Source: an uncultured Bacteroidia bacterium (GTDB lineage: Bacteria > Bacteroidota > Bacteroidia > Bacteroidales > CAJPTX01). Taken from it: a DNA stretch of 64,000 nt. The stretch covers positions 46,335 to 110,334 of the forward strand of contig CALHSW010000034.1 of assembly GCA_938038735.1 (NCBI GenBank), in the 5' to 3' direction. The notes beneath the pieces are model-generated. The model made no database searches and had not been told where the DNA came from. It saw only the letters and a list, made by a program, of their open reading frames with translations. Position 1 is the first letter of the stretch. Each line of letters begins with the position of its first letter. Position numbers and translations under genes: made by a program. Of this stretch, positions 8,395 to 35,711 are shown in pieces.

Positions 8395-8937
8395 ATGGAA
8401 GTGAAATTGTCGCCACGCATGGTGGCGCTACGTAGCGGCGATGCGATCAAGCAGCTAGAGGTGCTTCGGTCGCTGCGCGATGATGACGATGATACGCTAC
8501 TGAACGAACTGCTGCTGATGGTTACGCGAGAGTCTACGGATGAGCAGGTGCGGCAAGAGGTGGTGGAGCTGCTTGCCGATGTACGTTCCCGCACACTGGT
8601 GAGCGCGATGGGCGATGCGTTACGCATTGGTGGGGATTCTGCCTATCTCCCCGCGCTGGTGTCGATATGCTGGATGAATCGGATGGATTTTTCACCGATA
8701 CTCAACGAGCTGCTTGCGCTGGTTTCCCACAGCGATTTGCGTGTGCAGGTTGAGGCTATAACCAGCGTGGAGCTTGCGTTGGGGCATTGCACAGTAGATC
8801 AGATTCGGCGTAGCGTGGCAGACCTCAAGATGCGCTTAAAAAAGCTTAAAGGGCGTGAGGCCAGGGCTTTGGTTAACGAGATGATAAACACGCTGGAGCG
8901 GGATGCTGCACAGCGTGCTTCGGGCGAGAAGGAGTGA
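8395..8937 (+). CDS. Hypothetical helical-repeat (HEAT/ARM-like) acidic protein
   Basis: ORF 8170..8937 was trimmed to the in-frame ATG at 8395 (MEVKLSPRMVALRSG...), because the upstream part covers a repeat copy and the promoter box. The protein has repeated L-rich helices and a DDDDD tract. No family was recognised. Confidence 0.55.
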   Translation: MEVKLSPRMVALRSGDAIKQLEVLRSLRDDDDDTLLNELLLMVTRESTDEQVRQEVVELLADVRSRTLVSAMGDALRIGGDSAYLPALVSICWMNRMDFSPILNELLALVSHSDLRVQVEAITSVELALGHCTVDQIRRSVADLKMRLKKLKGREARALVNEMINTLERDAAQRASGEKE

Positions 8938-9005
8938 TAGGCCTCCGTAGGAACCACTCCAGAAAATCCTAAAAAATGGGGATTGCCGCCCCAGCTTAAA
9001 GACGC

Positions 9006-9013
9006 TACCTTCG
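9006..9013 (+). promoter_or_regulatory. Variant -7 box TACCTTCG upstream of feoAB
   Basis: It is the same octamer as upstream of aspS and lies 44 nt before the ATG at 9057. Confidence 0.35.
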
Positions 9014-9056
9014 CGCAGTAAAAAAGAGAAGACAGAAAGCGAGGGGCTAGGGCGTG

Positions 9057-12133: not shown

Positions 12134-13249
12134 CTAATTCAGTTTATAGCGAGCCATATCCGCCTGCGTTTCAGCCGCCATCGTTGCAAGCGATTCAGAA
12201 GTGGAGCTCAGCTCCTGCGCGGAGCTAGAGTTCTCATTGGTAATTTGCACAAGCTGGTCGAGAGCGGCACTAATTTGCTCTGTACCAGTTTGCTGCTCTT
12301 GGCTTGCCGAGGCGATTTCCTGGATGATGCTACTAATCTTTCTGATGTTAGGAATGGAGGTGGTAAGCGCCTCTCCCATGTTGTCCACGGCACTGGCACT
12401 TTGCTTCGATAGGTCCTCAATCTCTTGCGCAGATTTTGCGCTAAGGTCAGCCAAGCGCCGCACCTCAGCGGCGACCACTGCAAAGCCCCTTCCGTGTTCC
12501 CCGGCTCGCGCCGCTTCAATGGCAGCATTGATTGCCAGAATATTGGTTTTTTGCGCAATGTCTCCAACCACCTCAATCTTTTCCTTGATTTCTTTCATGG
12601 CGGCAGCAGTGCGATCAAACTCCGCGCTCACCTGTCCCACCTCCTTGTCAACCTGCGAACTAATGACCGCCCCTTCTCGTGCGTTGTCAAGATTCTGCAT
12701 GATGTTGGCGGTCATCTGCTCCATGGAGGCAGAAATTTCTTCGGCCGAAGCGGCTTGGGTAGAAGCACCGTGGCTAATGTTGCCAGCCTGCGTATTGAAT
12801 TGCTGACTAGCCTCTACTACTTTTCTTCCATTCTGCTCATTGAGCATAATGCCTGCACGCATAGCATCTGCCATTTTGTCAAAGTTTGTTGCTAGAATCC
12901 CGATTTCATTGCGTTGCGATAGCAATTTGTTTTCCATCTTGATTGATAGATCGCCCTCGGCGACCATACCCATGCTGGAAGCGATTTTCTTAATTGCCCC
13001 CTGGATGGTACGCTGTATATACACAAATCCGAGGATTGCTATGGGAGCGATAACTGCGACACCAATCAGATACACCTTAACCCCATATATGGCAGTGAAG
13101 TACCCTATTATGACAAATGACACGGCTATGACAATGACAATGTTAGCGATGGTGCGCAAAAAGCTGCCTCTGAATATGTAGTTACAGAGCACGAAGAGCA
13201 ATGGCACTACAATGGAGAGTGCGGTCATGAATATTGCGAATGGTGACAT
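12134..13249 (-). CDS. Methyl-accepting chemotaxis protein-like transducer (membrane N-terminus + HAMP + MCP signalling domain)
   Basis: 371 aa. It has about 3 N-terminal TM helices, a HAMP-like segment, and the highly conserved hairpin tip [35 protein letters not shown]. Confidence 0.88.
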
Positions 13250-21800: not shown

Positions 21801-24800
21801 AGATGTGCCGGTGACGCTATACTACGAGGCCACTGATACAAAGGGGGTGGTTCGCTCGTTGCTTGATGGCGTGACGTTTGAGTATAGTGCTGAGGTGACG
21901 TTTGCTAATGGTGACTTCCACGAAGCGAATGTTGATAATAATAAGTCGGCAACAAAGGTAGCGGTGCGGGATATATCGTCTCCAAAGGTGACCGGATTTT
22001 TCTTGGAGTCCAACGGCAATTCTAAAACCTTCACAGGAGACCGCATCTTGTACCAATGGGATGAGACCCAAATGCATGGTGAGCCAGTAGCAGTGACTTT
22101 GGGGGCGTACGTATCGAACGAAGGTCTTGAGGATAGGAATTGGTATTTGCGAGGGGCGATGCATCAAAGCGGTGCGGCAAATATTACCAAGATTACAGGA
22201 TCAACTGCTACGGTGGATGGATATGGTAGCGCGGAGCTGGTGGTGAGTAACAATCGTTGTGAAGGGACAGGCGTTTTCACTATAGTAGGGACAGGGGCTG
22301 CATTGATAGTAGATAGCATCAAGGGGATCCCAGACGAGCTTTGCCCCGAACAGGTGGCTGGAAAACGGAAGCTGACGGTGAAGATTGTCAATCCGACCCC
22401 GACGCCTATCAACACAACAGCAGATGGGTGCGGCCAGAACCATAAGCAGGAAGCCACGGTAACGCTGAGCCTCGATGGGAATGCGCTCAAGACGACACCC
22501 CCGAAGCGGCTAAGTGCTGAGAAGTTCTTTGGGCCTAAGAAGGAATTGTACGGAGGCGAACAGGTTAATGGCGTTTGGAAGCGGGGGACTAAGGTAGTAG
22601 GTATTGGCGTTGGGATGAGTGCATTTGATATGATTTCCGTTACGTTTGATGATGTTGAACTAGATGGGACTCACCTACAGCCGGGTACGGAGGGTACGAT
22701 AACGGTGTCGCTTAGCGGCGGGTGTGTGGATGAAGGGGTCGTCGATTCGAAGGATAAGAAGGTCAAGGTGAACAAGAGTCCAGATTTGAGGGAGGTTCTA
22801 AAGCGTAGTCCGTTAGAGCAGTATGCCCTGCGAGGTTCGGCGGCAGCATGGAAGGAGGAGTGGAGTTCGCAGCAGAAGTTGCAAGAAGAGATGGAGTGGG
22901 GCAAGAAGGACGAGAGTTCCGCTATTGTTAGGGCTACCGTTGAGCAGTTGGGTACGGATAACAAGTATAATTTAAAGCTAAGCGCAGCGAAGCCCGGTAC
23001 GTATGTGCTGAAGGTAACGGATAAGGAGAAGGGATGCGCCAGTAGCAAGGAGGTAGAGGTACAGATGCCGGGGTTCTTGACGTTGGCGGAAGGAGATGCG
23101 ATAACGGTGGAGCCGAAAGATTTGCTAACGGGATCGTGCAAATACGATAAGGCGGCGCAAGCGCTGAAGGTAAAGGTAGTCAATAATGGGAATGAGCCTT
23201 TGGCGCTTGCAGGGAAGCGCACGTCGATAAGGCTTACATACTCCAAGAATGGGGAAAAAATAATTTCGTCTCCATCTTTGGACTACACGTTTGATGTAGG
23301 AGCTGCAGATTTAGGTGTGGGAGGCGAGATGGAGATAGATGTGAGCGTACCATTTAAGGGAGTAGATTTTAGCGGAGATGGTGTGTACGATTTGAACTTC
23401 GTTTTGCAGCAAGGTATAACCGATCCAGTGGATGGAGCACCAGATGAACTCCGTAGCGTTAATCCGAAGAATCTAACCGTCAAGCGGTACTACCAGCCGA
23501 CGGCAAAGCCAGATTTAGCGGCACAGGTGAAAGTTTGGGGAGGGCAAAGTGTTGATTTCAAAGCGTTGCCTAAAGATAAGAAGGTGCTGACGCTATATGG
23601 TTTGGCTAAGAATCCAAAGTTAGAGTATGGTCGTCCGACTAGCGAGGAGTATAATACTCTGCAAAAAAATGGTACGATGTGGACTTGGTATGTAGATGGA
23701 GAGCAAGTGCTGGGGCCAGCACCCATTGCGTATGAGAAGAAGTTTGTGATCCCGCAGCCAGATGGGATTGTGAAGGTAGTGATGCAGACCAAGGATGGAT
23801 GTTCGCTTGAAAGCGATGAGGTGGAGATGCGGCGGTTGAAAGAGTTTAAATTCGGTGAGGTCCGGCTGGGGAAGATGAGCAATAGTAAGTGTGCGGAGGA
23901 GAGTTCGGTTGATGGAACAGAGCAGGAGGTGACAGGTTCACTTAAGCTGGAGATGGCCGATGTTCCGCTGGCGGCGGGGACAAAAATTGAGTTGAGGTGC
24001 GCCTACACGCAGGGAAGTCCAGACGAGAAGAAAGAGGACGATGTATCGATAGTGTTGGATAAGGAATATAAAGCAGGGAATTCGATACCGTTCAAGATAA
24101 TGTTGCCATTTAAGGTTGGGACGAATAGCGTGGAGGTGCTTGGAGGTCAGTACGTTGAACCACATTCCCAAAGGCCTTCGCTGATAGGGAGGAGTACGAC
24201 ACGTGAGATTTTTGATGTTTTGGCATACCCGACGTTGCAAAGTGAGATTAAGAAGGAGCAGAAGGCGTACGCAAGTCCATATTCAATAGAATTTCCTGCT
24301 GTGGAACCCAGGAACGAAGTGGAGTACAGTTGGGAGAACAAACCGTATTCGAAGAGTCCTGATTTTCAAGTAACCGAAAGTGGAGGTTATCGCGTGTGGG
24401 TAAAACGGGCAAACGGCTGCATTTTGGAGGGCAATGTGCGGGTAGATTTCTACTTTAAGTATGATCTTTCTTTGGGCGCAGGCGGAAGCGTGAGGGTGAT
24501 AGATGCAGAGACCGGTGAGGAGTACAAGCAGGGAGAACAGGTAATAAAGGATGGGGCGAAGGTGAAGATAGAGCCAGTTGCGAATGCAGGTTATCATGTG
24601 CTGGGAGCAAAGGTGAACGGAGATGTATTTGATCTAGGATCAGTGTACCCCGTATTGAAAGACTTCAATGTAGAAGTTCTCTTTAGTAAGGATAACAATC
24701 CCACACCGCCAGGGCCTAATAATGCTGTAGAGAGCGAGTTGCTGAGCGAGTTGGTAGCAGTAAATCCGTTTACAGGCGTGCTGCGGCTGTATGGTGCGGA

Positions 24801-24984
24801 GAATGTGGAGAGCTACGTGGTGTACAATCAGCTGGGCAACGAGCTACTCCGGGGAGTGAATACTTCTGGCGGCCGTGTGCTAGATATAGATGCTGCGCAG
24901 CTGCACGAAGGGGTTTACGTGGTGAGGCTACGGGATTCGTTGGGCGGTGAGAGAGCTCTAAGAGTAGTGAAGGTGAGGCGCTAA
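15847..24984 (+). CDS. Giant (3045 aa) T9SS-secreted multi-domain surface protein
   Basis: The signal peptide is MSSVRRFIKLLLAVSLALTAVEAWAQ. At least 5 CARDB-like beta-sandwich modules end in xNN signatures (DMSNNVARV, DVSNNVLAQ, DGSNNTKVY, NEANNEVVT, NVDNNKSAT). An InlB-B-repeat-like module sits near the C-terminus. The type-A T9SS CTD is NPFTGVLRLYGAENVESYVVYNQLGNELLRGV...GVYVVRLRDSLGGERALRVVKVRR. Confidence 0.85.
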   Translation: MSSVRRFIKLLLAVSLALTAVEAWAQWTLPPDYSKDNDAQNPKDMRGGKGQGMRLLYYESFEGERIRTTEGWGTMPKSWGQEFIEGAGISHTTAYWVVEPGGGRPNDSASRTPWRPYDGEWNMLCYVNSTGAMQRLVTPELNLSGGDISDPRLVFYYASPKDYRGFCRMRVQYRFGEEEWKDLADVEEFQRADDWVPVSIPLPPALREKGGLQIGFVSVQNYGFGTAIDEVYVVNMDGAETGVKTFDLTPQSPIIARGAKNVPLMRMDVTLTSGGGKLKLQGFNGKEEPTSRSVEVHALDGNGQPLMQDALSNFRLFVGRGGKFSDAVEAAKLDFTGGAGKPYELKTFNIKDHKALIMQGGNTYNVWIVADVNDVVSTPYKTRIWVDVAEETTKFVWYKNDENPTSLNGTKQSFFPAKGHSYETPEVQKSVVYKSLFFDDFEAGLDKWNRLSGAAQQLWAVGSPKDASGGSFLSGGRPLEEQVKSAYSGDKVLATGELAQDGEKLRARYFANMVSANNQNECAWVEIKDQIDASQVKDVYLVMQKSFNTPSGMLLFVEGKYEGSTTTWVEFARYNVSSSDWQGWQELPLRLSRADGRKFNLRLRAFYPKGDVAHTGFVIDDLRILGNEVQNDVGITGLKVTESWDNGNGRKAVFTVRNYGVNVQKDIKYDVYVDGNLVLGGQSLPEGDLAAGGSRNVKTDELAALKADLNRDNTHEIEVRLKLSTDEDMSNNVARVTTYSYPTIPVSDAKPYPENFGDPMHHWFGGEAYREGFKSSWLFNSVYSISKCRDNSGKQAGPFGEGMLLGSYIWTTGDHTAFGFEQSVLTSPVFEISTQDAKNRKEFVMAYTTQGENVEVQVEYRKENGDWQRLEKSAQWEKEWYDGSGAVWKGSTTEGYKIVKTLLPDDLQGVGGAVKAQFRVYFYNRSADRVPGIAVNGIEVRSVRSDIYVKSIEPRGGCENPLGNDETLRVTIAVNAEPAIAYGARKDFPVSIKVVRDGEKTYSVVKPVDLPALAPGQSHTVNTEVQVPWAAKWGKNSEVTVTLLPQSGENGEADEDVSNNVLAQTIEAKVPAVFPLKEIVKEEGGYVLYALMNNGLKLQTEPEQGSGYEGYTFSDFSISGGESFATISGETFTAKGEGLIKLKYKVNGECEEKLPIEIKRAQCDVAVEHVEPVGDVNCKDEGEALAFKVAIKDNKQPSQAQGLRLVVTQGGREVYNESAKLGEQTVEVIKARSGGGVLKFTAVAAADMDGSNNTKVYEPEVLLYPKPLKVFLQDVSDPTYMQRVENGSDQNTYGNRQWQLYVPKVSVIPKINWTHRGYTMSSQEDGYIVRLGQASGEFVALATLSNGTDQCPEKKVFSVNVKNEDVEVQSLGGGTGAPGLCADAQGEYEVYVSLMNHSWVSYSPETWLGFELSGPNGESKRTVQVQLTDEWQPKVLLLLPLGKLPKELKDLAVGNAVSLKVKYLGVYDADKIELTPDANEANNEVVTELKLSSAPKVEWEVPGLNPEGNEFVVRKVFKDVPTVTGTLKVKGGDPVGMHYAWYSKSKRADAWTLQEGGVQGPGVYNIMGIADDCYKVEVTNQAGCRSELEMRYIQTDLGFTSGKVMETPTESCALTDNDGNVRLIFKNTGSKPLTSEEKFRVTFQVQVDGELRPYTSDVMWFSPELEVNESRSELVKVENLSTLIAELQKKADADPKGKEKARLAFYNIELKAEGDWSVSGAANKDRRKRVAGVTLEEWGAPRPTVKLYSGVPGTELYQGNVRNPKAKQVGPQEGFRKGQVDGIDNTYGDLVGVVSKAPGEKAEWLWHYTYTKFNKWPDVKLAYAVEDSVVSIPQAKQTDWMEQNKNQVGTTPEGEPKRPDGTYTVVVTGAHECVSRVQFTVADKAYDLKLEAVRPPQDECDFKGKSTKVTVIVRNVGTMSIDPKAEIVLKLSRTDDVQSLTENWAKAAYTNFLGTAEGATTNISTHTIEKLNNGKALEPNGAVAIDVPVTLYYEATDTKGVVRSLLDGVTFEYSAEVTFANGDFHEANVDNNKSATKVAVRDISSPKVTGFFLESNGNSKTFTGDRILYQWDETQMHGEPVAVTLGAYVSNEGLEDRNWYLRGAMHQSGAANITKITGSTATVDGYGSAELVVSNNRCEGTGVFTIVGTGAALIVDSIKGIPDELCPEQVAGKRKLTVKIVNPTPTPINTTADGCGQNHKQEATVTLSLDGNALKTTPPKRLSAEKFFGPKKELYGGEQVNGVWKRGTKVVGIGVGMSAFDMISVTFDDVELDGTHLQPGTEGTITVSLSGGCVDEGVVDSKDKKVKVNKSPDLREVLKRSPLEQYALRGSAAAWKEEWSSQQKLQEEMEWGKKDESSAIVRATVEQLGTDNKYNLKLSAAKPGTYVLKVTDKEKGCASSKEVEVQMPGFLTLAEGDAITVEPKDLLTGSCKYDKAAQALKVKVVNNGNEPLALAGKRTSIRLTYSKNGEKIISSPSLDYTFDVGAADLGVGGEMEIDVSVPFKGVDFSGDGVYDLNFVLQQGITDPVDGAPDELRSVNPKNLTVKRYYQPTAKPDLAAQVKVWGGQSVDFKALPKDKKVLTLYGLAKNPKLEYGRPTSEEYNTLQKNGTMWTWYVDGEQVLGPAPIAYEKKFVIPQPDGIVKVVMQTKDGCSLESDEVEMRRLKEFKFGEVRLGKMSNSKCAEESSVDGTEQEVTGSLKLEMADVPLAAGTKIELRCAYTQGSPDEKKEDDVSIVLDKEYKAGNSIPFKIMLPFKVGTNSVEVLGGQYVEPHSQRPSLIGRSTTREIFDVLAYPTLQSEIKKEQKAYASPYSIEFPAVEPRNEVEYSWENKPYSKSPDFQVTESGGYRVWVKRANGCILEGNVRVDFYFKYDLSLGAGGSVRVIDAETGEEYKQGEQVIKDGAKVKIEPVANAGYHVLGAKVNGDVFDLGSVYPVLKDFNVEVLFSKDNNPTPPGPNNAVESELLSELVAVNPFTGVLRLYGAENVESYVVYNQLGNELLRGVNTSGGRVLDIDAAQLHEGVYVVRLRDSLGGERALRVVKVRR

Positions 24985-25011
24985 GCGTAGCGCAATGGTC
25001 TTGAGTGGACG

Positions 25012-25041
25012 AGAGTCCTTGGGCTATAGCCCAAGGACTCT
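25012..25041 (+). terminator. Strong hairpin (perfect 30-bp palindrome) after the giant gene
   Basis: agagtccttgggcta/tagcccaaggactct lies 28 nt after the stop codon. The T-tract (ttgtc) is weak, so function as an intrinsic terminator is inferred only. Confidence 0.55.
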
Positions 25042-25105
25042 TGTCGGGTATGAGGTACCTGTATATACTTAGTTAAGAGTAGGAAAAAATAGAGAGTAAG
25101 GAATC

Positions 25106-27748
25106 GTGAAAGGAAGAGCGCAAAGAGTTCGATTCATGCTGTATGGCCTCACAGTACCGTTGGTAGTGCTGGCTGCGTTTTCTGGGTGTGCAAACAGTTA
25201 CAAATATAAGCGGTCGGGAGGTGAAATTGGCGAGTCAGCTGCCCTTAGCAAGAGGCCGGCGGCAAAGGGCTACGCATCGCTACTGAAGCATGCAGCGTGT
25301 GACACAGGTTTTATAAGCGTCTACACTGTGCAAGAAGACCATGAGACGAAGCGATACTTTAGCGTGCCGAGAGAGGTGTGGGGGCGAGATATACTCGTAG
25401 TGAATAAGGTTACCTCTGTGCCGGCCAAGTTGGGCGAAACGGGTATGAACCGCGGTGCGAACTACCGCAACATGCTTATTCGCTTATCTCCGAGTCCTGA
25501 TGGAAGTAAGTTGGATATACGGGAGGTGGACCCTGAAGTTGAGTGCGATAGCGGGAGCAGCATATGCGAGTCGGTTCGGGCAAACTACGTTTCTTCGCTG
25601 GTAGCATCGCTGCCGATAGCGGCCGTTGAGGGAGACTCGTTGGCCGTTTTGGTGGAGATAACCTCCCTATTTGATGGTAGCGAAAAGGCGTTGCAGAATG
25701 TGTTCGGCGTAGCGGGGCTAGGCACATCGCCTAAAACATCGCTGTCGCGCATTATTAAGACGAAAGCATTTTCTACCAACGTTGTGGTGTATAGCGAGCT
25801 AACCACGCCAGTATCTGGTGCAGAGGAGCGTATGACGCTCACGGTGGGGGTTGCATCGAATTGGTACTTACTGCCAGAGGAGAAGATGGTGCCCCGCTTC
25901 GCGGATGAGCGTGTGGGAATTTTTACCATGCCAAAGCAGTACTACCGCGATGCGCAGCAGCGGGTGGAGGAACGTAAGGTGATTACGCGCTGGCGGTTGG
26001 AGCCGCGGCCGGAGGATCGAGAGCGGTACTTGCTAGGCGATTTAGTTGAGCCAGAGAAGCCGATTGTGTTCTACATTGATAAGGCTACGCCGACTCAGTG
26101 GGTCCCCTTTATTAAACAGGGTATAGAGGATTGGCAGGTTGCCTTTGAGCATGCGGGCTTTAAGAATGCGATTGTTGCCCGTGAGGTGCCCAAGGAATCT
26201 ACTGATTTTGACCTTGACGATGCCCGATACTCCTCTGTGGTTTACGCAGCATCGACTATGGCCAATGCGATGGGGCCCTCGGTGTGCGACCCGCGGACGG
26301 GGGAGATAGTGGAATCGGATGTGATGTGGTGGCACAACGTGCTGGGGGCGGTGCACCGCTGGCTGCGGCTGCAGACGGGATTGCTTAATCCCGCGGTGCG
26401 TGCCAACGAGATACCCGACGAGGAGATGGGAAAGGCGGTGCGTTTCATCGCGGCGCATGAGATTGGCCACACGCTTGGGTTGATGCATAACATGGCCTCG
26501 AGCGCAGCGTATTCGGTGGACTCGCTTCGCTCGCCCTCCTTCACGGCGGCGCATGGCACGGCGCCCTCGATAATGGATTACGCACGGTTTAACTACGTGG
26601 CGCAGCCGGGCGATGGGGTGACGCAGCTCTACCCCAAGATAGGAGAATATGATTGCTACGCCATAGAGTTTGCCTATCGTTGGCGCGGGGCGAAAACTCC
26701 CTACGAGGAGCTACAGGCGCAACGGAGCCTCGTGGCAGCGCATGCGAATGACCCGGTTTACTTTTTTGGACCGCAAAGCTCGTCACGCTCCATACTTGAC
26801 CCTCGCTCGCAGAGCGAAGATATCGGGAACGATGCGGTGGTAGCATCTAAGCTAGGGTTGAAGTCGCTCAAGGCTATCCTGCCGCAGGTGCTGGAGTGGG
26901 CGGATGCTAAAAATGGGGAGTACCTCGCGGCGGGGAAGTTCCTGCACGATGTGATTGACCAGTGGCATATGTATGCCTACCACGTAATGGCTAACGTGGG
27001 AGGGGTGTACCTCAACGATAGGGATTATGCGGTTGAGAAGGCATCGTTTGCCTTTGTGCCGAAGGCGAAACAGCGCGAGGCGGTGCGATACCTCATCGAC
27101 GAGGCGTTCGTTTACCCTAAATGGCTATTTGGCGGCGATATCTACACGAAGATATTCCCGGTGAAGAGTTCGCCGGATGGTCCCTACGAATACGCCCCAA
27201 TGGAGCTGTTCAAGAACTATCAAGGGTACTTGCTGTGGGATTTGCTGGACGATGAGCGCTTGGCGCGTATGGTGGAGAATGAGGCGCGCAATGGCAAGAA
27301 GGCGTACAGCGTGCTGGAGATGTTTGACGACCTGCGGAAGGTTCTGTTTGCCCCCACCGTGCGTGGCGTCGCGCTAACAGCCTACGAGCGCATAGCGCAG
27401 AAAAACTATGTTGATGCGCTGATCATTGCGGGGGATAGGACTGTGGCGGTGAAGAATCGTAAGGCTCTCTTGGAGGGAGCGTTCGGCATTCGCCCCGAAG
27501 AGCAGGCAAAGGGTTATCTTTGCAGCGGGCGGGCAGCGCAAAAAGACGATGAAAGGGGTTTTGTGAATGCGAATCGTCGAATAAAGTTTGACCAGCTGAG
27601 CCGCATAGGGGATCAGCTCTCGTTGAAGCGCGGGGAGTTGATGCGTCTACGCGATTTGATGAAGCGCGGAGTAAGCCATAGCGATTTGGCAACGCGCTAT
27701 CACTACAAGGATTTGATCCTGCGCATCAACGATGCGCTTGGTGAATAG
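25106..27748 (+). CDS. Zinc-dependent metalloprotease lipoprotein (met-zincin, HExxHxxGxxH)
   Basis: 880 aa. The lipobox is LAAFSGCANS and the zinc site is AAHEIGHTLGLMHNMASS. Size and layout resemble the Bacteroidota DUF5117/DUF4953-type zinc metalloproteases, a family assignment made from memory. The start may be the GTG at 25106 or the ATG at 25136. Confidence 0.85.
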   Translation: MKGRAQRVRFMLYGLTVPLVVLAAFSGCANSYKYKRSGGEIGESAALSKRPAAKGYASLLKHAACDTGFISVYTVQEDHETKRYFSVPREVWGRDILVVNKVTSVPAKLGETGMNRGANYRNMLIRLSPSPDGSKLDIREVDPEVECDSGSSICESVRANYVSSLVASLPIAAVEGDSLAVLVEITSLFDGSEKALQNVFGVAGLGTSPKTSLSRIIKTKAFSTNVVVYSELTTPVSGAEERMTLTVGVASNWYLLPEEKMVPRFADERVGIFTMPKQYYRDAQQRVEERKVITRWRLEPRPEDRERYLLGDLVEPEKPIVFYIDKATPTQWVPFIKQGIEDWQVAFEHAGFKNAIVAREVPKESTDFDLDDARYSSVVYAASTMANAMGPSVCDPRTGEIVESDVMWWHNVLGAVHRWLRLQTGLLNPAVRANEIPDEEMGKAVRFIAAHEIGHTLGLMHNMASSAAYSVDSLRSPSFTAAHGTAPSIMDYARFNYVAQPGDGVTQLYPKIGEYDCYAIEFAYRWRGAKTPYEELQAQRSLVAAHANDPVYFFGPQSSSRSILDPRSQSEDIGNDAVVASKLGLKSLKAILPQVLEWADAKNGEYLAAGKFLHDVIDQWHMYAYHVMANVGGVYLNDRDYAVEKASFAFVPKAKQREAVRYLIDEAFVYPKWLFGGDIYTKIFPVKSSPDGPYEYAPMELFKNYQGYLLWDLLDDERLARMVENEARNGKKAYSVLEMFDDLRKVLFAPTVRGVALTAYERIAQKNYVDALIIAGDRTVAVKNRKALLEGAFGIRPEEQAKGYLCSGRAAQKDDERGFVNANRRIKFDQLSRIGDQLSLKRGELMRLRDLMKRGVSHSDLATRYHYKDLILRINDALGE

Positions 27749-27790
27749 AAGGATCAGCGGGGTGTGTAGAAATAGACTATTAAAAAGACG

Positions 27791-30700
27791 ATGGTAGGAT
27801 TTTTTGGGAAAGATAAGGCTGTGAATGCGAAGTGGATGCGGGGTGCGATTGTTGCAATTTTATTGCTACTGCCAGCTTGGTCTTCGCTTTGGGCGCAGAC
27901 CAAAGAGGTGCGAGGCATAGTGCTGGATGCGGAGGAGTCAACCCCTTTGGTGGCTGCGACAGTTGGTGCGCTGGCGGCAGGCAGCACCACGGAGGTGGTG
28001 GCGAGCGGGATTACCGACTTAGACGGACGTTTCCGTTTGGATGTGCCTACGTCCACAGCACAGCTGTTAATCGTTTATGTGGGTTACGAGCAGCAAATTG
28101 TGGCATGCACGGCGGACCTGATCACGGTGCGCATGCAGCCCGAGACGCAGAACATTGAGGATGTTATCATTACGGGGTATGGAAAGATAGACCGCCGGAA
28201 GTCAACGGCCTCTGTGTCGTCGGTAACGCTAGCAGAGATGCCCGAGGCATCGATGGGCATTGACCAGATGCTCAAGGGGACCATGGCAGGAGTGAATGTC
28301 ACGACGGTGAGCGGAACGCCAGGGGCGGCGGCGAAAATACGAATTCGTGGCACGTCATCATTGCAGGGAACACAAGACCCGCTGTGGGTGGTGGATGGGA
28401 TGCCCCTAGAGGGAACCGATTTGCCAAAGCTTGAGGATCTTTCAGGCGTTGATGAACTCTACTCATCGGCCATTGCTGGAATAAACCCCCAGGATATTGC
28501 GTCGATTTCGGTGCTTCGCGATGCGGCAGCCACGGCCATATACGGCGCAAGGGCCGCGAACGGCGTGATCGTAATCAATACGAAGAGCGGAAAGAAGGGG
28601 CATGTGCGAGTTAACTACGCAGGAAAGATTTCTGTGGTGGCTCGCCCTGACATTTCGCGATTGCAGCTTTTGAATAGCAGCGAGAAGGTGGGGTTAGAAC
28701 TTGACTTACTGCGGAGCGGCTACACGACCTTTGAGGGCAAGGGGGGCGTGTCGCGCATTCTGAATGCGCACGGGGAGCTTGATAAGTATAAAAAAGGCGG
28801 ATGGGATGCACTGTCGCCAGAAGCCAAAAGTGAAATTGATGCGTTGCGAGGAATAAACACCGATTGGAATAAAGAGCTATTCCGTACGGCTCTGAGCCAC
28901 GACCACTTTCTGAGCGTAGCTGGCGGGGCGGATTGGGCAGACTACTACGTATCGGCTGGGTATTTTAATGAGGCTGGTACCGTGCGCGGGGTGAATGCGA
29001 GCCGGGTTAATTTGACATCAAAAACGAAGTTCCATTTTTTTGATCGATTAGACATAGGGGTTACGCTATTGGCCAATCAGCGTAAGAACAACTCCTATCT
29101 ATCCAACACCGATGGCTACACTAATCCTGTATTCTACTCCCGCACAGCGAACCCCTACTTGCCAATATACGATGCGAATGGTGGCTATGTGTATGACCCA
29201 GATATGCGAGGTTTTGGACGCGATGGGGACGTGATACCCTACAATATCGTTGAGGAGCGTAGCAATACGAAGTATAATCTTAAAAATCAGTCGATTACAA
29301 CTGTCTTTGACCTAACGTGGCGTATATGGCGGGGGCTGACGCTGGAGTCGCAGGCGGGGCTACAGTTTGATGGTCATAAGCTGGTGGCTACGGCCCTCGC
29401 GGAGAGCTACGCAGTGCGGCGGGAGCTTCAGCGTTCCAAACTGTCTGATGGGTCGTCCTACATTCCGAGCGGTGGCTTTTTCCGTAACACCGATGGGCAT
29501 TCCTTCCAGTACACGATAAAGAATATGCTGCGGTACGTGACAACGTTCAAAGGAATGCATTCAATAGATGTTATGCTCGGCAATGAAGTGCGCCGTGCAA
29601 CCGATGAGGCTGTTTTTTCGGCGGGTTATGGCTACGATCCAGAGTCTTTAACCACAAAGGTGGTGCACTTTACGCGCGATGACCAGGAACGCTACACGCC
29701 CCTATTTCGGCGTACATACTTTGAGAATGCCTTTGTGTCGTTCTTTGCGACAGCGTCCTACACGCTGATGAATAGGTACACGCTGGGCGGGAGCGTCCGT
29801 TTTGATGGAAGTAACCTCTTTGGGGTGGATCCGAAGTACCGTTACCTTCCGCTCTACTCCGTGAGCGCAATGTGGGACGCAAAGCAGGAGTCCTTCTTGG
29901 AGAACGTGGATTGGCTGAGCGATTTACGTTTTCGGGTATCGTACGGATTGCAGGGTAATATTGATAAGAACACCTATTCACAGCTAGTAGGGGTGCTGCG
30001 CCACGATGCGTTTTTCTTCCCTAAGACAGGGCGCAGCGGGGAGAGCGGAGAGGATAACATAACAATTGAGACCCCGCCAAACAGCCGTTTGCGGTGGGAA
30101 AAGACGAGAACGTACAATGCGGGCTTTGATGTCTCTTTCATACGCTATCGCATAAAGCTGAGCGCAGATTACTACGATAGGCTTAGCACGGATTTGATAG
30201 GCATGCGCAAGCTCCCATTGGAGTCGGGGTTTGCCTACACCACTGTGAACTGGTCGCAGCTCGTGAACCGGGGCGTGGATGTGAATGCTTCGTTCCTACT
30301 GCTGAAAATAGCGGATTTTGAGTGGAACCTACAGGGGAACTTCTCCTATAACTATAATAGGATAAGACGTTTAACTACGCAAGACAAGGATAGGAAACCT
30401 AGCGGGGAGGGGTATCCTGTTGGAGGAATTTTCACGCTGCCGTATGCAGGGATTGATCAATATGGGTATCCGTTGCTAGAGGGTCCTAACGGCGAGAAGC
30501 TTTTAATATCAGAGCTACTTCAGCTGCAGCAGGTGGGTCCGAGTAGCGTCTCAAAGTTGACGCCGGAGGCGGAACGTGGGCTATACCAATACGCTGGGAC
30601 GGATGAAGCACCCTACAGCATGGGGGCTTCTACGGCGTTTTCGTGGAAAGGTTTAGAACTATCGTTGGCTGTGGTTGGGAATTTTGGACATAAGTACTTG

Positions 30701-31117
30701 GTGCAGCCCTACTATAGCTTTACGCAATTTGACAGGGGTCTCAACACAAGTCGTAGAATCTTTGATCGTTGGACGGATGATAATCCGAATGCCACGCTTC
30801 CACGCCTGATGATGAAGGATGACCTTCGACGTGCCACGGAGTACACTGCGTACGATGAAGGGTATCAGCGGGTGTTAAGTCTATACGTGCGCGATGCCTC
30901 CTACCTACGGCTGCAGTCGGTACGGCTGTCGTATGCGTTTCCAACGGAATTGCTTAAGAAGGCAAAGATTGCTAGTGCAACGTTGGCTTTAGAGGGGAAA
31001 AATCTCCTCGTATGGGGAAAGGATTATGAGGGTTTCCTAGATCCTGAGACGATGAAGAACCCTTACGCCCAACCGATACCACGGGCTGTGAGCTTTTCAG
31101 TAACACTCGGTTTCTAG
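27791..31117 (+). CDS. SusC/RagA-family TonB-dependent outer-membrane transporter
   Basis: 1108 aa. It has the carboxypeptidase-regulatory-like N-domain VRGIVLDAEESTPLVAATV and the plug start VIITGYGKIDRRKSTASVSSV. It ends SFSVTLGF. No STN signalling extension is present. An alternative start is at 27836. Confidence 0.93.
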   Translation: MVGFFGKDKAVNAKWMRGAIVAILLLLPAWSSLWAQTKEVRGIVLDAEESTPLVAATVGALAAGSTTEVVASGITDLDGRFRLDVPTSTAQLLIVYVGYEQQIVACTADLITVRMQPETQNIEDVIITGYGKIDRRKSTASVSSVTLAEMPEASMGIDQMLKGTMAGVNVTTVSGTPGAAAKIRIRGTSSLQGTQDPLWVVDGMPLEGTDLPKLEDLSGVDELYSSAIAGINPQDIASISVLRDAAATAIYGARAANGVIVINTKSGKKGHVRVNYAGKISVVARPDISRLQLLNSSEKVGLELDLLRSGYTTFEGKGGVSRILNAHGELDKYKKGGWDALSPEAKSEIDALRGINTDWNKELFRTALSHDHFLSVAGGADWADYYVSAGYFNEAGTVRGVNASRVNLTSKTKFHFFDRLDIGVTLLANQRKNNSYLSNTDGYTNPVFYSRTANPYLPIYDANGGYVYDPDMRGFGRDGDVIPYNIVEERSNTKYNLKNQSITTVFDLTWRIWRGLTLESQAGLQFDGHKLVATALAESYAVRRELQRSKLSDGSSYIPSGGFFRNTDGHSFQYTIKNMLRYVTTFKGMHSIDVMLGNEVRRATDEAVFSAGYGYDPESLTTKVVHFTRDDQERYTPLFRRTYFENAFVSFFATASYTLMNRYTLGGSVRFDGSNLFGVDPKYRYLPLYSVSAMWDAKQESFLENVDWLSDLRFRVSYGLQGNIDKNTYSQLVGVLRHDAFFFPKTGRSGESGEDNITIETPPNSRLRWEKTRTYNAGFDVSFIRYRIKLSADYYDRLSTDLIGMRKLPLESGFAYTTVNWSQLVNRGVDVNASFLLLKIADFEWNLQGNFSYNYNRIRRLTTQDKDRKPSGEGYPVGGIFTLPYAGIDQYGYPLLEGPNGEKLLISELLQLQQVGPSSVSKLTPEAERGLYQYAGTDEAPYSMGASTAFSWKGLELSLAVVGNFGHKYLVQPYYSFTQFDRGLNTSRRIFDRWTDDNPNATLPRLMMKDDLRRATEYTAYDEGYQRVLSLYVRDASYLRLQSVRLSYAFPTELLKKAKIASATLALEGKNLLVWGKDYEGFLDPETMKNPYAQPIPRAVSFSVTLGF

Positions 31118-31138
31118 TTGGGAAAGGAGGATATTGCC

Positions 31139-32509
31139 ATGATTAAACTGCATTTTCAATATAGAGTGTCTATACTGCGCACGGTGCTGGTCGGGGCGTT
31201 GATGCTTGCTGGGTTTACGGGGTGCGAGAAGTTTTTGGATATAAAACCGGCAGGAGTGGTGATGCCGAGCAGCACGGCAGACTACCGTGCGCTGCTCACG
31301 AGAGCCTACCATGGATTCCCCACTGACTTAGCGAAGCTATCCATGCGTAGCGACGAGGTGAGTGTGAATTTTGATGGTGCCAACGCGTCATATCGGCCAT
31401 CGTACGAAGAAATTTATCTATGGCGTGATGGGCGCAGCCTCTCAACGCTTACCACGGAGTGGCAGGGGTACTACCACGGTATCTACGTGACGAACCACCT
31501 TATAGACATTTTAGCTGGTAAAGAGGGAGCATCGGCCGACGAGAAGCAGCTGGTGGGGGAGGCTTACCTATTACGTGCCTACAGCTACTTTTTGCTGGCT
31601 AATATATATGGACAGCCCTACGCGGAGGCAAATCTCGGAACGCCCTGCGTGCCGCTTATGCTAGATAATGAGGTGGAGACCGTGCAGGAAAGGAGTTCGC
31701 TTAGGGAGGTCTATGCCCAGGTGGTTAAGGATTTAACAACTTCGTTTAAATGTCTACAAGAGGAGAGTTGGGAGCCAGCCAAGCGCTATCGGTTCAGTAA
31801 GGATGCGGCGCACGCATTTGCGTGTAGGGTTGCACTCTACATGGGCGATTGGGCAAAGGCGGTAGAATTCGGTGCGCCGCTGCTTTCATCACGCTATCAG
31901 CTGGTTGATTTGAACGCTCCAGGTGTGAAGCCGCCATGCCACTATGAGTCGAACGAGGCGATTATGAATTTGGATCTGGTGGTTGATGGGGATTACCTTA
32001 GCATTATGCGTCCATCGCAGAGTCTGATTAATTCGTACAGTGCGGGAGACCAGCGCAAGCGCGTGTACTACAGGATGCCGGCGTTGAACGATTATAGGGT
32101 GGAGCGAGGCGATGAGAAGAAGGGAGAGGGAACAGCCTATCGAATAACGTTCCGGCTCGGAGAGGTGCTGCTCAACGTGGCGGAGGCGCATGCGCGCAAG
32201 GGGGAACTGGAGGAGTCAAAGACCTTGCTAAAGCAGCTGGCGCAGAAGAGGTATGAAGCGGGGGAGCTGCCGAATGCTGAGGCTGCAATAGATGCGTTGG
32301 CAACGCAGAGTGATATGCTAGCGTTTATTCTTGCGGAGCGAGGGCGCGAGCTGGCGTTTGAGGGGCTACGCTGGTTTGATTTGCGGCGTTTTGGCTGCCC
32401 GGAGATAGTCCATACGCTTGATGGCCAAGAGCATCGGCTTGAAACAAACGATGCGCGGTACACCCTGCCTATACCGCGTGAAGCGAAAGAGAGTAATAGT
32501 AACCTTTAA
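31139..32509 (+). CDS. SusD/RagB-family outer-membrane lipoprotein
   Basis: The lipobox LMLAGFTGCEKFLDIKPAGVV is typical of a SusD N-terminus, and the body is TPR-like and helical. The ATG at 31139 is preferred over the TTG at 31118. It lies 21 nt after the SusC stop. Confidence 0.88.
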   Translation: MIKLHFQYRVSILRTVLVGALMLAGFTGCEKFLDIKPAGVVMPSSTADYRALLTRAYHGFPTDLAKLSMRSDEVSVNFDGANASYRPSYEEIYLWRDGRSLSTLTTEWQGYYHGIYVTNHLIDILAGKEGASADEKQLVGEAYLLRAYSYFLLANIYGQPYAEANLGTPCVPLMLDNEVETVQERSSLREVYAQVVKDLTTSFKCLQEESWEPAKRYRFSKDAAHAFACRVALYMGDWAKAVEFGAPLLSSRYQLVDLNAPGVKPPCHYESNEAIMNLDLVVDGDYLSIMRPSQSLINSYSAGDQRKRVYYRMPALNDYRVERGDEKKGEGTAYRITFRLGEVLLNVAEAHARKGELEESKTLLKQLAQKRYEAGELPNAEAAIDALATQSDMLAFILAERGRELAFEGLRWFDLRRFGCPEIVHTLDGQEHRLETNDARYTLPIPREAKESNSNL

Positions 32510-32522
32510 TACCAAATCAACC

Positions 32523-35500
32523 ATGAGACAATTTGTGCATGTTATATTAGCGTTGCTGGCGTTTACGGTCGTGCTTTCGACCGGTCAAACGTATGGCCAG
32601 CTGACGCAAGTAGAGTTTAAAAACGAGGCTGTGAAGCTGGGGAGTGGGGAGTCCCTCGCGCAGGCCATCCAACGTAGCTCTGATGGGGGGTACTTTGTGG
32701 CAAGCCGAAGGAATGGGAAGGTGACTCTAGTAGACCCTACGACGAAGGTTGATATGGGGCCGACTGACGGTGCCCTGCTCACGAAGTATGGAAAAGATGG
32801 GAAGCTTGCGATGTACGTGGCCTTCAAGGGCAACGTAAGCATCCAGAAGATTGCGGCTACCCCAGATGGGGGCGCCATCGTAGGGGGAGTGTACACGGGC
32901 CCGATGTTGCTGGTTAATGCGAACGGGGAGGCTCCGATAGCTGCCGATGCAACGGCAGATTTGCCTCGGTTGTTTGTGGCGGAGGTGAAGGCGGATGGGA
33001 CGCTGGGGACTGTGCTGCTGCCAAAACATTCAAAGGCGGCTGAACCCATGTATCCCCCCGCTGTGATAAGTTTAGAATATGATGGAAAGAGTAATGTGTT
33101 ACATACTGTCCTTACCATTAATACTGCGGTGACAGTGGGGAATCCTGCGTGTAAATATGATGTTTCAACAACGGATTGGGGGTGGGGACCGTTGTATTTG
33201 TTTTCAACCGCAGCCTTTTCGATAAAGTGGCGAGAACAGAATGTGTTGGCGTCCTGTCAAATGAATATAAACTCTAGCAGATTTATTGAAGTTTCTGGCA
33301 AAACAGCAGTGTTTGGATTGTCGAAGGTCTCTGACTTGAAGATTGTGCCAGATGATAATGGGGGGTCGTATCTAGCAAGGTCTTTTTTTGGACAAGTTGA
33401 TGAGATTGATAGCACGGCTAAAGGGCAATATGTCATTGAGCACGGGAAGGGCGCGACTAAGGAAGATAGTTTAGGGATAGTAAGCGTGGAGAGAAGAAAG
33501 ATTGATGGGACGAGCGTTTGGAGCAAACCGTTAAGCTTTGTTGTGGCGAATTATTATGACTTTACAAAGAACTATAGAGCTGATGCATCATTGCACTACA
33601 TAGCACCTTTAGGTGATGGAAAGCGGTTTGTGGTGGTGGGCCTGTTTGATGGGGAATTGAAGTTTGACGATGGAACGAAGCTTACGGCCGGACTGGATAA
33701 AAAAGACAAAGAGCAAGGATATAGCACCGATGCATTCGTTATTATTGGAGATGCACAAACCGGAAAAATACTTTCGAAACGCGTCCTCGGATTGTCGTTG
33801 GCAGGCTATGTACGGAAGCTTCAATCGGTTGCAGACTACCCCCTTTCCGCGGCTCTAGATGGAGAGGATTTAGTGTTGGCATTGCCGTTCCAGGGAAACA
33901 TTAAAGTGGGTAGTGCGGAGTATAAGTCCAAGGATGGAGGGAAAGAAGATGGAAAAGTGAGGTATAATTCCCTCATAGCGCATGTGTCGTTGGCTCCAGG
34001 CGATGAATTGGCGATGCAGGCGGCGTTATCGTTGACGCATGCGGGAAAGGTGCGGATTGATGGCTTGGCGAAGATCAAAAGCGGAGAGTACGCCTACGTA
34101 GGGAGCGCGAAGAGCCGCAATGATGCTGGCGCGAATGAGAATACCAAGCTCTATGTGAATGGAGACGCGGTGGTTGAGAGCATTGCAGATGCGAAGAGTG
34201 CTACTGTGTCAATAGCTGGGAAGGTGAAGTTGGGTGGAATTGTAAAAGTGGAGTTCGTTGCGCACGGAGACTGCGTGGATGTGAAGCTGCAAAAGAACGA
34301 AGAGGCTGCTATAGATTATTCAAATGACGCCTCCTTGCCTACGTTAAGGAAGGGGGATAAATTGACCGTGACGGCAGCATTGAAGTCAGGAAAGGAGCAG
34401 GATTATGCGCTTTTGCCAATTGAAATCAATGGGGAAAAGAAGGGGGTGTATACTCACGATGGTGTTACGTCAGAGATAAATGTGACGGTCGGTGCGTATA
34501 AGACTACTAAACCAATTACCGTGACGATAGATCCAGCAGGAAGTGCTGAGCTGAAGTTCACGGTAGCTGGGGCTGAGAAGGTGTTTAAGGGAGAGAAGGG
34601 GGACCCGAAGGTTATGGTGAGGAATGGAGAGAGCGTGGAGGGGTTGGCGGTAACCGAGATGTCAGGATATAAGTTGCGGGAGATTCTCGTACAGGGAAAG
34701 AAGCTAGGTGAGGGAATTACGAGCTATACGCTGAAGGCGGATGACCAAAAAGACGCTTTGGAGATTGAGGTACGTATGGAGGCTACCGAGTTCCAGATTT
34801 TGTACAATGTGGTTAATGCAAGCGATGGCAAGGTGAGCGTATTTGTTGATGGTAACCCGGTGAAGTTTGATAACGCTGGGAAATCTGACGTGAATGTTCA
34901 TGCGGAGAGCAAAGTGAAGGTGGAGGCTGTACCTAACGACCTCTTGAAGTGCTATGCAGAGGTAACAGTGAATGGGAAGCCGCTAGAGGGGGAAGAGTTC
35001 GTTGTAGAGGGAGGCAAGTGCGAAATAGAGGTGAAGTTCGTGGCGAAACCTGTGTTTGAGGTTGCGGTAGAAGTGAAGGAAGACATTACGTATGGAAAGG
35101 TTACCGTGGCGGTAGATGGCGGTACTCCAGTGGTGTTTGAGGGTGATCCGAAGAAATACCCGAACCTAAAGGTGTACCCTGAGCAGAAGTTGACGATTAT
35201 AGCTGAGCAGATGGGGAGGGGCAAGTTTGAGTCTCTAAAGGTGGCAGGGACCGATTTTACGAGTGGCGAGGTGTATACGGTTCCATCGCAGCTGTCAGGA
35301 AATAAGCTGAACATACAGGCTACGTTCTCACGGAGTACTGCGGTAGAGGCGAAGGAGCTGACGACTGTGGCGTTGCGGAGCAACCCAGTGTCAAAGGAGT
35401 TCGTGGTGGAGGGGACGTGGAGCGGGGAGCTTCGCTATGCGCTATACAACGCCTTGGGGAAGCGTATTCTTTCGGGTAAGTCGGCTTATCAGGGCTTGCT

Positions 35501-35597
35501 ACGGATCTCGGCGCAAGACCTACCATCGGGAGTTTACTTCCTACGGCTGGAGGATGCCACGGGCGCCACTACAACGCTGAAGGCGGTGAGGCGCTAG
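32523..35597 (+). CDS. T9SS-secreted surface protein (1024 aa) with a beta-propeller-like N-half and InlB-B-repeat/Ig-like C-half
   Basis: ORF 32418 was trimmed to the ATG at 32523, which gives the signal peptide MRQFVHVILALLAFTVVLSTGQTYGQ. About 85-aa modules repeat (..GKVSVFVDGNPVKF.., ..GKVTVAVDGGTPVVF..). The T9SS CTD is NPVSKEFVVEGTWSGELRYALYNALGKRILSG...GVYFLRLEDATGATTTLKAVRR. Confidence 0.8.
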   Translation: MRQFVHVILALLAFTVVLSTGQTYGQLTQVEFKNEAVKLGSGESLAQAIQRSSDGGYFVASRRNGKVTLVDPTTKVDMGPTDGALLTKYGKDGKLAMYVAFKGNVSIQKIAATPDGGAIVGGVYTGPMLLVNANGEAPIAADATADLPRLFVAEVKADGTLGTVLLPKHSKAAEPMYPPAVISLEYDGKSNVLHTVLTINTAVTVGNPACKYDVSTTDWGWGPLYLFSTAAFSIKWREQNVLASCQMNINSSRFIEVSGKTAVFGLSKVSDLKIVPDDNGGSYLARSFFGQVDEIDSTAKGQYVIEHGKGATKEDSLGIVSVERRKIDGTSVWSKPLSFVVANYYDFTKNYRADASLHYIAPLGDGKRFVVVGLFDGELKFDDGTKLTAGLDKKDKEQGYSTDAFVIIGDAQTGKILSKRVLGLSLAGYVRKLQSVADYPLSAALDGEDLVLALPFQGNIKVGSAEYKSKDGGKEDGKVRYNSLIAHVSLAPGDELAMQAALSLTHAGKVRIDGLAKIKSGEYAYVGSAKSRNDAGANENTKLYVNGDAVVESIADAKSATVSIAGKVKLGGIVKVEFVAHGDCVDVKLQKNEEAAIDYSNDASLPTLRKGDKLTVTAALKSGKEQDYALLPIEINGEKKGVYTHDGVTSEINVTVGAYKTTKPITVTIDPAGSAELKFTVAGAEKVFKGEKGDPKVMVRNGESVEGLAVTEMSGYKLREILVQGKKLGEGITSYTLKADDQKDALEIEVRMEATEFQILYNVVNASDGKVSVFVDGNPVKFDNAGKSDVNVHAESKVKVEAVPNDLLKCYAEVTVNGKPLEGEEFVVEGGKCEIEVKFVAKPVFEVAVEVKEDITYGKVTVAVDGGTPVVFEGDPKKYPNLKVYPEQKLTIIAEQMGRGKFESLKVAGTDFTSGEVYTVPSQLSGNKLNIQATFSRSTAVEAKELTTVALRSNPVSKEFVVEGTWSGELRYALYNALGKRILSGKSAYQGLLRISAQDLPSGVYFLRLEDATGATTTLKAVRR

Positions 35598-35624
35598 CGA
35601 AGGTAGACTGACATAGATTTAAAA

Positions 35625-35666
35625 GTAAGGGGAGGCCCGCATTTGCGGACCTCCCCTTACTTTTTT
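35625..35666 (+). terminator. Rho-independent terminator closing the protease-SusCD-cargo unit
   Basis: gtaaggggaggcccgc-attt-gcggacctccccttac forms a 15-bp stem with one mismatch, followed by tttttt. Confidence 0.85.
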
Positions 35667-35711
35667 GTGTAGTTAACGCCGAGGAGGGGGTAAAATATTG
35701 AAAAGAAACGT

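Follow-up and report, generated by a model that had tools for sequence, protein, structure and literature searches.

The DNA analyzed here, referred to as the window, is a stretch of 64,000 nucleotides (nt) from an uncultured Bacteroidia bacterium of the order Bacteroidales, and the system in question is a unit of four genes on its forward (+) strand. These genes encode, in order, a metzincin protease (25106–27748; 880 amino acids, aa), a SusC-type transporter (27791–31117; 1108 aa), a SusD-type lipoprotein (31139–32509; 456 aa counted from ATG) and a predicted surface protein of the type IX secretion system, T9SS (32523–35597; 1024 aa counted from ATG). Judged by the similarity of its parts, the unit is an ortholog of the ZnMc-ButC-ButD locus of Bacteroides fragilis, the core of which is already known. 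It represents a variation on a known system, not something new, and the best reading of its function at present is that its substrate is proteinaceous.

The spacers between these genes measure 42, 21 and 13 nt, with coordinates and strands that agree with the original prediction made from this DNA, and none of the three showed structure when its folding was compared with that of shuffled sequences. The four-gene unit is real and operon-like, and its co-transcription is predicted. Close relatives compared with the window (L081–L095) comprise conspecific genomes (L081 and L088–L095) and others whose proteases are 78–80% (L082–L084), 62% (L085) and 55% (L086 and L087) identical to that of the window.

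Strong hairpins lie on both sides of the unit, as had been predicted, and their significance was assessed as the z score of the folding energy relative to shuffled sequences (200 shuffles for the upstream hairpin). The upstream element (25008–25045, + strand), a terminator-like hairpin that closes the neighboring gene of a giant protein, has 19-nt arms, no strong U-run and a folding energy of −34 kcal/mol (z −7.7), with none of the 200 shuffles folding equally well, and it is the sole inverted repeat in the region 24700–25400. Because compensatory substitutions preserve its base pairing in L082 and L084, at 78–80% protease identity, we regard this hairpin as a functional boundary. An invertible promoter upstream of the protease was considered and rejected, as the inverted-repeat search showed the terminator hairpin only. 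Downstream, the unit is closed by an intrinsic terminator (35621–35667, + strand) composed of an A-run, a 19-pair stem with one internal mismatch and a U-run, the folding energy of which (−33.5 kcal/mol, z −7.1) lies far beyond that of shuffled controls. A consensus terminator scan overlooked this very strong terminator, making negatives from that scan unreliable, and a sigma-70 promoter scan is uninformative for Bacteroidota.

The original prediction also held that the unit lacks a glycoside hydrolase, lyase or esterase, and this is borne out by a Pfam-based check for carbohydrate-active enzyme (CAZyme) families: none was matched in any of the four proteins, and in the fourth and the giant protein the search was carried down to E ≤ 10 without a match to any family of these three enzyme classes. 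Nor is there a CAZyme among the genes immediately flanking the unit (PLA1, SpoU, PGK and an ABC ATPase). Among the annotated open reading frames of the window there is no gene for a hybrid two-component system (HTCS), SusR, extracytoplasmic function (ECF) or LytTR regulator, and a tblastn search of the window found no LytTR regulator.

The SusCD core and its linkage across the Bacteroidota

Domain calls made with Pfam and NCBIfam recovered the transporter components that had been predicted. The second gene product scores 660 bits against the SusC/RagA family TIGR04056 (cut-off 368 bits) and possesses a signal peptide, CarboxypepD_reg-like and Plug domains and a barrel, with no STN domain matched in Pfam. 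The third matches SusD-like_3 (E 3e-30) and SusD_RagB (E 5e-22) and carries the lipobox LAGFTG-C. Of the solved structures, 8ypu_C and 8ypt_C match the window SusC best (931 bits, E 8e-279), compared with 240 bits for RagA, 233 for BT1763 and 142 for BT2264. For the window SusD the best match is 8ypt_A (282 bits, E 1e-82) and the runner-up reaches 65 bits, RagB being absent from the matches at E ≤ 0.001. The comparator chosen in the original prediction, RagAB, is thus displaced by ButCD, since PDB entries 8YPT and 8YPU represent ButCD of B. fragilis (Tong et al. 2024, PMC11467351).

In B. fragilis GS077, the locus GS077_4427–4425 consists of ZnMc followed by butC and butD, without glycan genes. 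Uptake of BfUbb, an 8.8 kDa ubiquitin-like toxin, requires ButCD and TonB3; cryo-EM places BfUbb in the mouth of ButC, import leaves it undegraded, and deletion of ZnMc alters neither sensitivity to BfUbb nor its uptake. Its authors proposed that ZnMc-butC-butD is a protein-nutrient system, and their conservation analysis was limited to Bacteroides (PMC11467351). The idea of protein utilization at the window locus was reasonable as a broad guess; it is not new, because it is already in print for this triad of ZnMc, SusC and SusD. New here are the phylum-wide linkage of the triad, its recurrent T9SS partner and an alternative bracket of LytS and LytTR genes, together with a predicted placement of the protease and the diversity of fourth-gene alleles.

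The linkage was surveyed in GTDB, taking one genome per species and querying with the window protease, which returned 80 loci. In 41 of these the protease is at least 41% identical to that of the window, and for 37 of the 41 the downstream flank extends to 5 kb or more. SusC and then SusD follow directly downstream on the same strand in all but two of these 37 (35/37), in Chitinophaga, Pedobacter, Sphingobacterium, Labilibaculum, Marinifilum, Ancylomarina and Formosa as well as in Bacteroides, Phocaeicola, Alistipes, Butyricimonas, Duncaniella, Prevotella and Porphyromonas. Because the linkage is kept in 35 of 37 informative loci, the triad is an old, co-inherited unit across the Bacteroidota. 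The linked SusC proteins are 36–46% and the linked SusD proteins 32–40% identical to those of the window, and unrelated SusC proteins of the same loci are 24–27% identical. None of the 39 loci with a protease of 35–40% identity (L042–L080) has an adjacent SusC gene, and these DUF5117/DUF4953 proteases are a stand-alone paralog clade.

Accessory genes were counted in 36 complete triads. A LytS-type kinase (PF06580, His_kinase) lies directly upstream of the protease in 19 of them, often with a dCache-like extracytoplasmic domain that scores below threshold, and a regulator with Response_reg and LytTR domains lies directly downstream of SusD in 19, with kinase and regulator both present in 17. 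A propeller-type fourth gene, described below, was found in 7/36 triads, and in none did it occur together with the two-component system. The predicted absence of a regulator therefore holds for the window and fails elsewhere, as about half of the orthologous triads are bracketed by the LytS-type kinase and LytTR regulator; because of this bracket, much of the phylum has a dedicated regulator for the triad, unlike those of glycan loci. Cache domains are commonly receptors for small ligands, amino acids among them, and a Cache-like kinase that senses periplasmic breakdown products would suit a system of this kind. The bracket was seen in L002–L018, L023, L040, L041 and others (for example at 8093–9709 and 17303–18049 of L002). 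Among further neighbors of the triad, L012 (Bacteroides sp. GD17) encodes upstream of the protease a 924-aa protein with Mfa-like, leucine-rich repeat (LRR), thioredoxin-like and Peptidase_M64 domains (6785–9559).

SusCD pairs are overwhelmingly glycan importers, and this invites an alternative in which the locus is dedicated to a glycan or glycoconjugate, with its enzymes encoded elsewhere, serving for example the uptake of glycopeptides or O-glycoprotein fragments, with the metzincin as a glycoprotease. Such a role would fit EcxA, which is the only match of the protease among the sequences of solved structures (E 0.0018), a GH97 gene that directly follows SusD in the Duncaniella locus L022 (17274–19472) and a beta-N-acetylhexosaminidase gene beside ZnMc in B. 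fragilis. However, the EcxA match is marginal and confined to the surroundings of the zinc site, across the 36 loci the triad has no conserved CAZyme partner, none was matched in the window unit at E ≤ 10, and the window has no HTCS, SusR or ECF regulator. We consider a glycan locus very unlikely.

The fourth gene, its alleles and its neighbors

The fourth protein begins with a hydrophobic signal peptide, and its sole domain match, at aa 954–1020, is to the type A sorting domain of the T9SS (TIGR04183; 28.9 bits, with the cut-off at 23 bits); it is predicted to be a T9SS type A cargo protein, in line with the original prediction. The genes of the T9SS machinery lie outside the window. Nothing beyond the sorting domain was matched in Pfam down to E ≤ 10, and a comparison with PDB sequences gave no match. 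An AlphaFold2 (AF2) model, built from an alignment of 6 sequences, is all-beta with a predicted local distance difference test (pLDDT) score of 76 and is divided into a propeller (approximately aa 27–470), an Ig-like beta-sandwich stalk (approximately aa 480–940) and the sorting domain. Foldseek matched this model to the propellers of VPS10/SorCS2, CylK and HTCS sensors and to Ig-like domains of pilus adhesins and SpyCEP-type proteins, with no enzyme or hydrolase family among the matches.

The four-gene arrangement is conserved in related genomes: the fourth gene directly follows SusD in every relative examined among L081–L095, down to 55% protease identity, and the genes beyond it vary (PGK, a restriction enzyme, a Mur ligase or PEPCK). 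In addition, six GTDB loci carry after SusD, on the same strand and with spacers of 40–112 nt, a gene for a signal-peptide protein of 523–559 aa (group B). They belong to Duncaniella, Porphyromonadaceae, Prevotellaceae, Paraprevotella, Prevotella and a Bacteroidales metagenome-assembled genome (MAG), and in a seventh locus, L035 from a Bacteroidaceae MAG, the propeller gene lies divergently upstream of the protease. Aligned with hhalign, the fourth genes of the window group and of group B match with a probability of 98.3% (E 2e-14) over 410 columns that span the whole propeller. Because the group-B proteins are homologous, the four-gene arrangement extends beyond the genus to several T9SS-bearing families of the Bacteroidales. 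A word-indexed homology search with the N-terminal domain of the fourth protein found nothing; when 1.84 billion representative proteins were searched exhaustively, only five proved to be full-domain relatives of the window propeller. Clusters at 90% contain 52 members for SusC, 48 for AspRS, 42 for PGK and 2 for the fourth protein. By these searches the propeller family is small and fast-evolving.

Comparison of ten strains of the window species revealed at least four alleles of the fourth gene, which share 72–79% aa identity within this one species. The corresponding values between pairs of strains are 97–100% for PGK, 98.6–100% for ClpB, 96.8–100% for SusC, 95–100% for the protease and 92–100% for SusD, which at 92–95% takes an intermediate position. 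Variation is concentrated at aa 147–400 and 591–640, the former being a hypervariable propeller segment (32961–33722, + strand) with a mean pairwise identity among the four alleles of 41–69% per 50-residue block and a synonymous divergence of approximately 1.0. In these variable segments the synonymous divergence (dS) is approximately 1.0–1.3 and the ratio of nonsynonymous to synonymous divergence (dN/dS) approximately 0.3, and in the rest of the gene dS is approximately 0.22. Recent positive selection on the fourth gene was considered and rejected on these values, which instead point to old alleles that would have been moved by recombination. L095 and the L088 group share an identical SusC and a protease that is 99.9–100% identical, with SusD at 95% and the fourth gene at 78%; because L095 shares SusC and the protease but not the fourth gene with this group, a recombination boundary can be placed in or near SusD. 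When the window is compared with L081, dS amounts to 0.004 in SusC, 0.086 in the protease, 0.145 in SusD, 0.377 in the fourth gene and 0.149 in PGK. The SusC genes of the two (27791–31117 and L081 12686–16012) are thus nearly identical in DNA while dS of flanking genes is 0.09–0.38, and this mosaic suggests that the transporter gene has swept or recombined recently.

The allelic depth of the fourth gene hints at biotic pressure on an entry route, and this would fit the known exploitation of this route by ubiquitin-like toxins. It also bears on an alternative of non-nutritional uptake, in which a specific protein or peptide would be taken up for signaling, scavenging of cofactors or metals or envelope turnover, with the variable propeller protein serving chiefly as an antigen or receptor at the surface, shaped by phages and toxins. 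Ancient, divergent propeller alleles in one species and the hijacking of ButCD by toxins (PMC11467351) are compatible with this alternative, as are the LytTR-type two-component systems that bracket the triad in many lineages and the lack of a growth phenotype upon deletion of susC in B. fragilis GS077. On the other hand, a housekeeping-like, phylum-wide triad with a large degradative protease fits the use of bulk substrate, and there is no candidate for the signal or cofactor. Non-nutritional uptake seems to us decidedly unlikely.

The giant protein (15847–24984, + strand; 3045 aa), which the original prediction regarded as an additional capture component, is a neighbor and can be dismissed as a part of the unit. 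It carries a T9SS sorting domain (TIGR04183, 28.5 bits against the cut-off of 23) and no other significant domain in Pfam to E ≤ 10, and its resemblance to the fourth protein spans the sorting domain only. It is kept upstream in L081–L084, at 90% identity in the conspecific strain (dN/dS 0.39) and 44–45% in congeners. In L085 a T9SS adhesin that is unrelated to it and encoded on the opposite strand occupies its place, and in L086 and L087 an LRR protein does so, and none of the 80 GTDB loci has a homolog. Because unrelated T9SS proteins replace it in relatives, the giant protein is not a conserved component, and the conserved terminator separates it from the unit.

Elsewhere, the window encodes AspRS, MiaA, FeoAB, PlsY, PGK, a ClpB-like ATPase, FabG and FtsY, and by this gene content it is ordinary chromosome. 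Its AspRS is 68% identical to that of Tenuifilum/Tenuifilaceae, the nearest named group, and 73% identical to those of Bacteroidales MAGs. A methyl-accepting chemotaxis protein (MCP) with HAMP and MCPsignal domains, unusual for Bacteroidales, is encoded at 12134–13249 on the − strand, and another MCP gene follows SusD in L008 (17649–19430). Two tandem genes for proteins of approximately 725–735 aa with TPR and SpoIIE (PP2C-type phosphatase) domains, the predicted ends of which overlap by 40 nt, occupy 44980–49319, and a Tricorn-like protease of 1153 aa (PD40 propeller repeats, Tricorn_C1, Peptidase_S41), unlinked to the unit, is encoded at 57849–61310 by what is the second gene for a large protease in the window.

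Placement of the metzincin and a proposed mechanism

The protease matches DUF4953, 'Met-zincin' (E 2e-105), DUF5117 (E 4e-43) and DUF5118 (E 3e-7) in Pfam and has more than 8000 homologs; a literature search on DUF4953 and DUF5117 gave no match. Its zinc motif HEIGHTLGLMH (26456–26488, + strand; residues 451–461, including H451, E452, H455, G458 and H461) is highly conserved, as H451, E452, G454, H455, G458, H461 and N462 are invariant in 59 of 59 diverse orthologs. All residues of the sequence SIMDY (26567–26581, + strand; S488–Y492) are likewise invariant in these 59, and we infer that SIMDY, with M490, is the Met-turn. An invariant HExxHxxGxxH together with SIMDY is the pattern expected of an active metzincin, and activity is predicted. 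The AF2 model (pLDDT 85, predicted template modeling score 0.83) consists of a beta-rich N-terminal, an alpha/beta catalytic and a large helical C-terminal domain. A Foldseek search of the PDB with this model returned nothing below E 0.01, so that the modeled fold would be assignable only to a metzincin/ADAM-like core and to no characterized peptidase family.

The original prediction of a lipoprotein metzincin stands with respect to the zinc motif and the lipobox, LAAFSG-C, in which the cysteine is Cys28 as read from the translation (25187–25189, + strand). It does not extend to the protein family, as the lipobox is atypical of the orthologs. The mature N-terminus of the window protease is C-ANSYKYKRSGGE. 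The lipoprotein export signal of Bacteroidota, defined here as acidic residues at +2 to +6 after the lipobox cysteine, takes forms such as K-(D/E)2, SDDDD and SDDFE (PMC5080379), and no acidic residue is present at +2 to +6 after Cys28. In a survey of signal peptides in 120 homologs (P0001–P0120), a credible lipobox occurs in approximately 8, namely the close relatives of the window and a few others, and approximately 110 of the 120, those of Bacteroides, Chitinophaga and Marinifilum among them, carry a cleavable signal peptide of the ordinary kind; a T9SS domain is absent from all 120. By this survey, lipoprotein status is a peculiarity of a small clade and not typical of the family. Most orthologs also have a conserved Lys-rich stretch (KKKK to KKKKKK) right after the signal peptide, of which the window protease has a weaker version, YKYKR (25190–25215), in a region that is disordered in the model. 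Because the export signal is missing, the orthologs are mostly non-lipoproteins and ZnMc of B. fragilis is dispensable for toxin uptake, the protease is probably not surface-exposed and probably works on the periplasmic side after import.

These observations weigh against the mechanism originally suggested, in which surface proteolysis is coupled to peptide import: a lipoprotein protease at the surface would cut extracellular proteins, a RagAB-like SusCD pair would import the oligopeptides and T9SS proteins would capture the substrate. That mechanism can draw on the lipobox of the window clade and the intact metzincin motif, and on RagAB being a documented peptide-importing SusCD system, with RagA the second-best structural relative of the window SusC. 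However, it has to contend with the lack of acidic residues after Cys28, with the roughly 110 of 120 orthologs that are not lipoproteins, those of Bacteroides being without a known route to the surface, and with a transporter much nearer to ButCD, which imports an intact 8.8 kDa protein with ZnMc dispensable. Surface proteolysis with RagAB-like import is not the best-supported mechanism, and we judge it to be unlikely.

We propose, with moderate confidence, that the unit is a ButCD-type SusCD importer of a proteinaceous substrate to which a fourth gene has been added. In the most likely model, the T9SS propeller would capture polypeptides at the surface, the ButCD-type pair would import them whole, and the metzincin would then degrade them on the periplasmic side. 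The T9SS would export the fourth protein to the surface, where its propeller, held on the Ig-like stalk, may serve as a non-catalytic module for capture or recognition, as its modeled fold suggests. The ButC barrel and ButD lid would then import small proteins or large peptides whole, with energy provided through TonB, by analogy with the B. fragilis orthologs. After import, the metzincin, possibly as a lipoprotein of an inner leaflet, would cut the polypeptide into fragments that fit inner-membrane carriers.

Several points count against this proposal. Deletion of susC in B. fragilis GS077 left growth unchanged in rich or minimal medium (PMC11467351). The binding role of the fourth protein is read from its fold alone, in a model of moderate confidence, and although all six group-B proteins have a sorting-domain-like tail, only one of the six passes the T9SS sorting-domain cut-off. 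The periplasmic placement of the protease follows from sequence signals only, the window SusD itself matches the export-signal consensus only loosely, and a Tannerella forsythia ortholog of the protease has been found in the proteome of vesicles, a result that is compatible with either placement.

A bolder 'utilisome' reading would make the T9SS propeller a dedicated fourth subunit that docks on or near ButCD and chooses the small proteins to be imported whole; taken as a whole, this is improbable. It would further hold that the periplasmic-side protease then degrades the imported proteins, that the recombining alleles reflect an arms race with hijacking toxins or phages, and that lineages lacking the propeller gene control this core by a periplasm-sensing LytS-type kinase with a Cache-like domain and its LytTR partner, and we doubt that all of these hold jointly. 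Little is understood about the way in which large peptides and proteins pass the outer membrane of Bacteroidota, and ButCD is the one SusCD pair shown to carry a folded protein. The recurrent T9SS propeller, the recurrent two-component system and the probable periplasmic role of the protease are three leads to its native function.

Comparison with known systems

The window unit and the ZnMc-ButC-ButD locus of B. fragilis agree in gene order and strand, in the domain architecture of the protease and in the absence of a CAZyme or a classical regulator of polysaccharide utilization loci (PULs), and the published hypothesis for the latter also invokes a proteinaceous substrate. They differ in that the window has a fourth, tightly linked T9SS propeller gene, which Bacteroides lacks, and a lipobox on its protease, and identity to orthologs of the Bacteroides lineage is only approximately 44–47%. 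TonB-dependent import of a small folded protein has been shown for B. fragilis ButCD with BfUbb only (PMC11467351).

With RagAB of Porphyromonas gingivalis (PDB 6SLI and related entries), the unit would share the features of a SusCD-type, TonB-dependent importer of a non-glycan (peptide) substrate in a T9SS-bearing member of the Bacteroidales, and RagA is, at 240 bits, the second-best structural relative of the window SusC. RagAB is, however, far more distant from the window SusCD pair than is ButCD. To our knowledge, the rag locus has no linked metzincin; the peptides imported by RagAB are produced by gingipains encoded elsewhere.

A canonical glycan PUL, such as the levan locus BT1762–1763, resembles the unit in its SusC/SusD pair with a lid lipoprotein and in having an accessory surface protein beside SusD, the position usual for surface glycan-binding proteins. 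In contrast to such loci, the window unit lacks both a CAZyme and any regulator of the HTCS, SusR or ECF/anti-sigma type, its linked enzyme is a protease, and its accessory protein is sorted by the T9SS and is not a lipoprotein. T9SS-secreted proteins inside SusCD loci have reportedly been documented already, as for ChiA in the chitin locus of Flavobacterium johnsoniae.

Finally, the fourth protein can be compared with SBBP-repeat propellers (PF06739; LipL53 family, NF047494). The group-B proteins give weak matches to SBBP and to the LipL53 family, and aa 40–165 of the window fourth protein match SBBP-like repeat proteins, although the scores are far under the family cut-offs.

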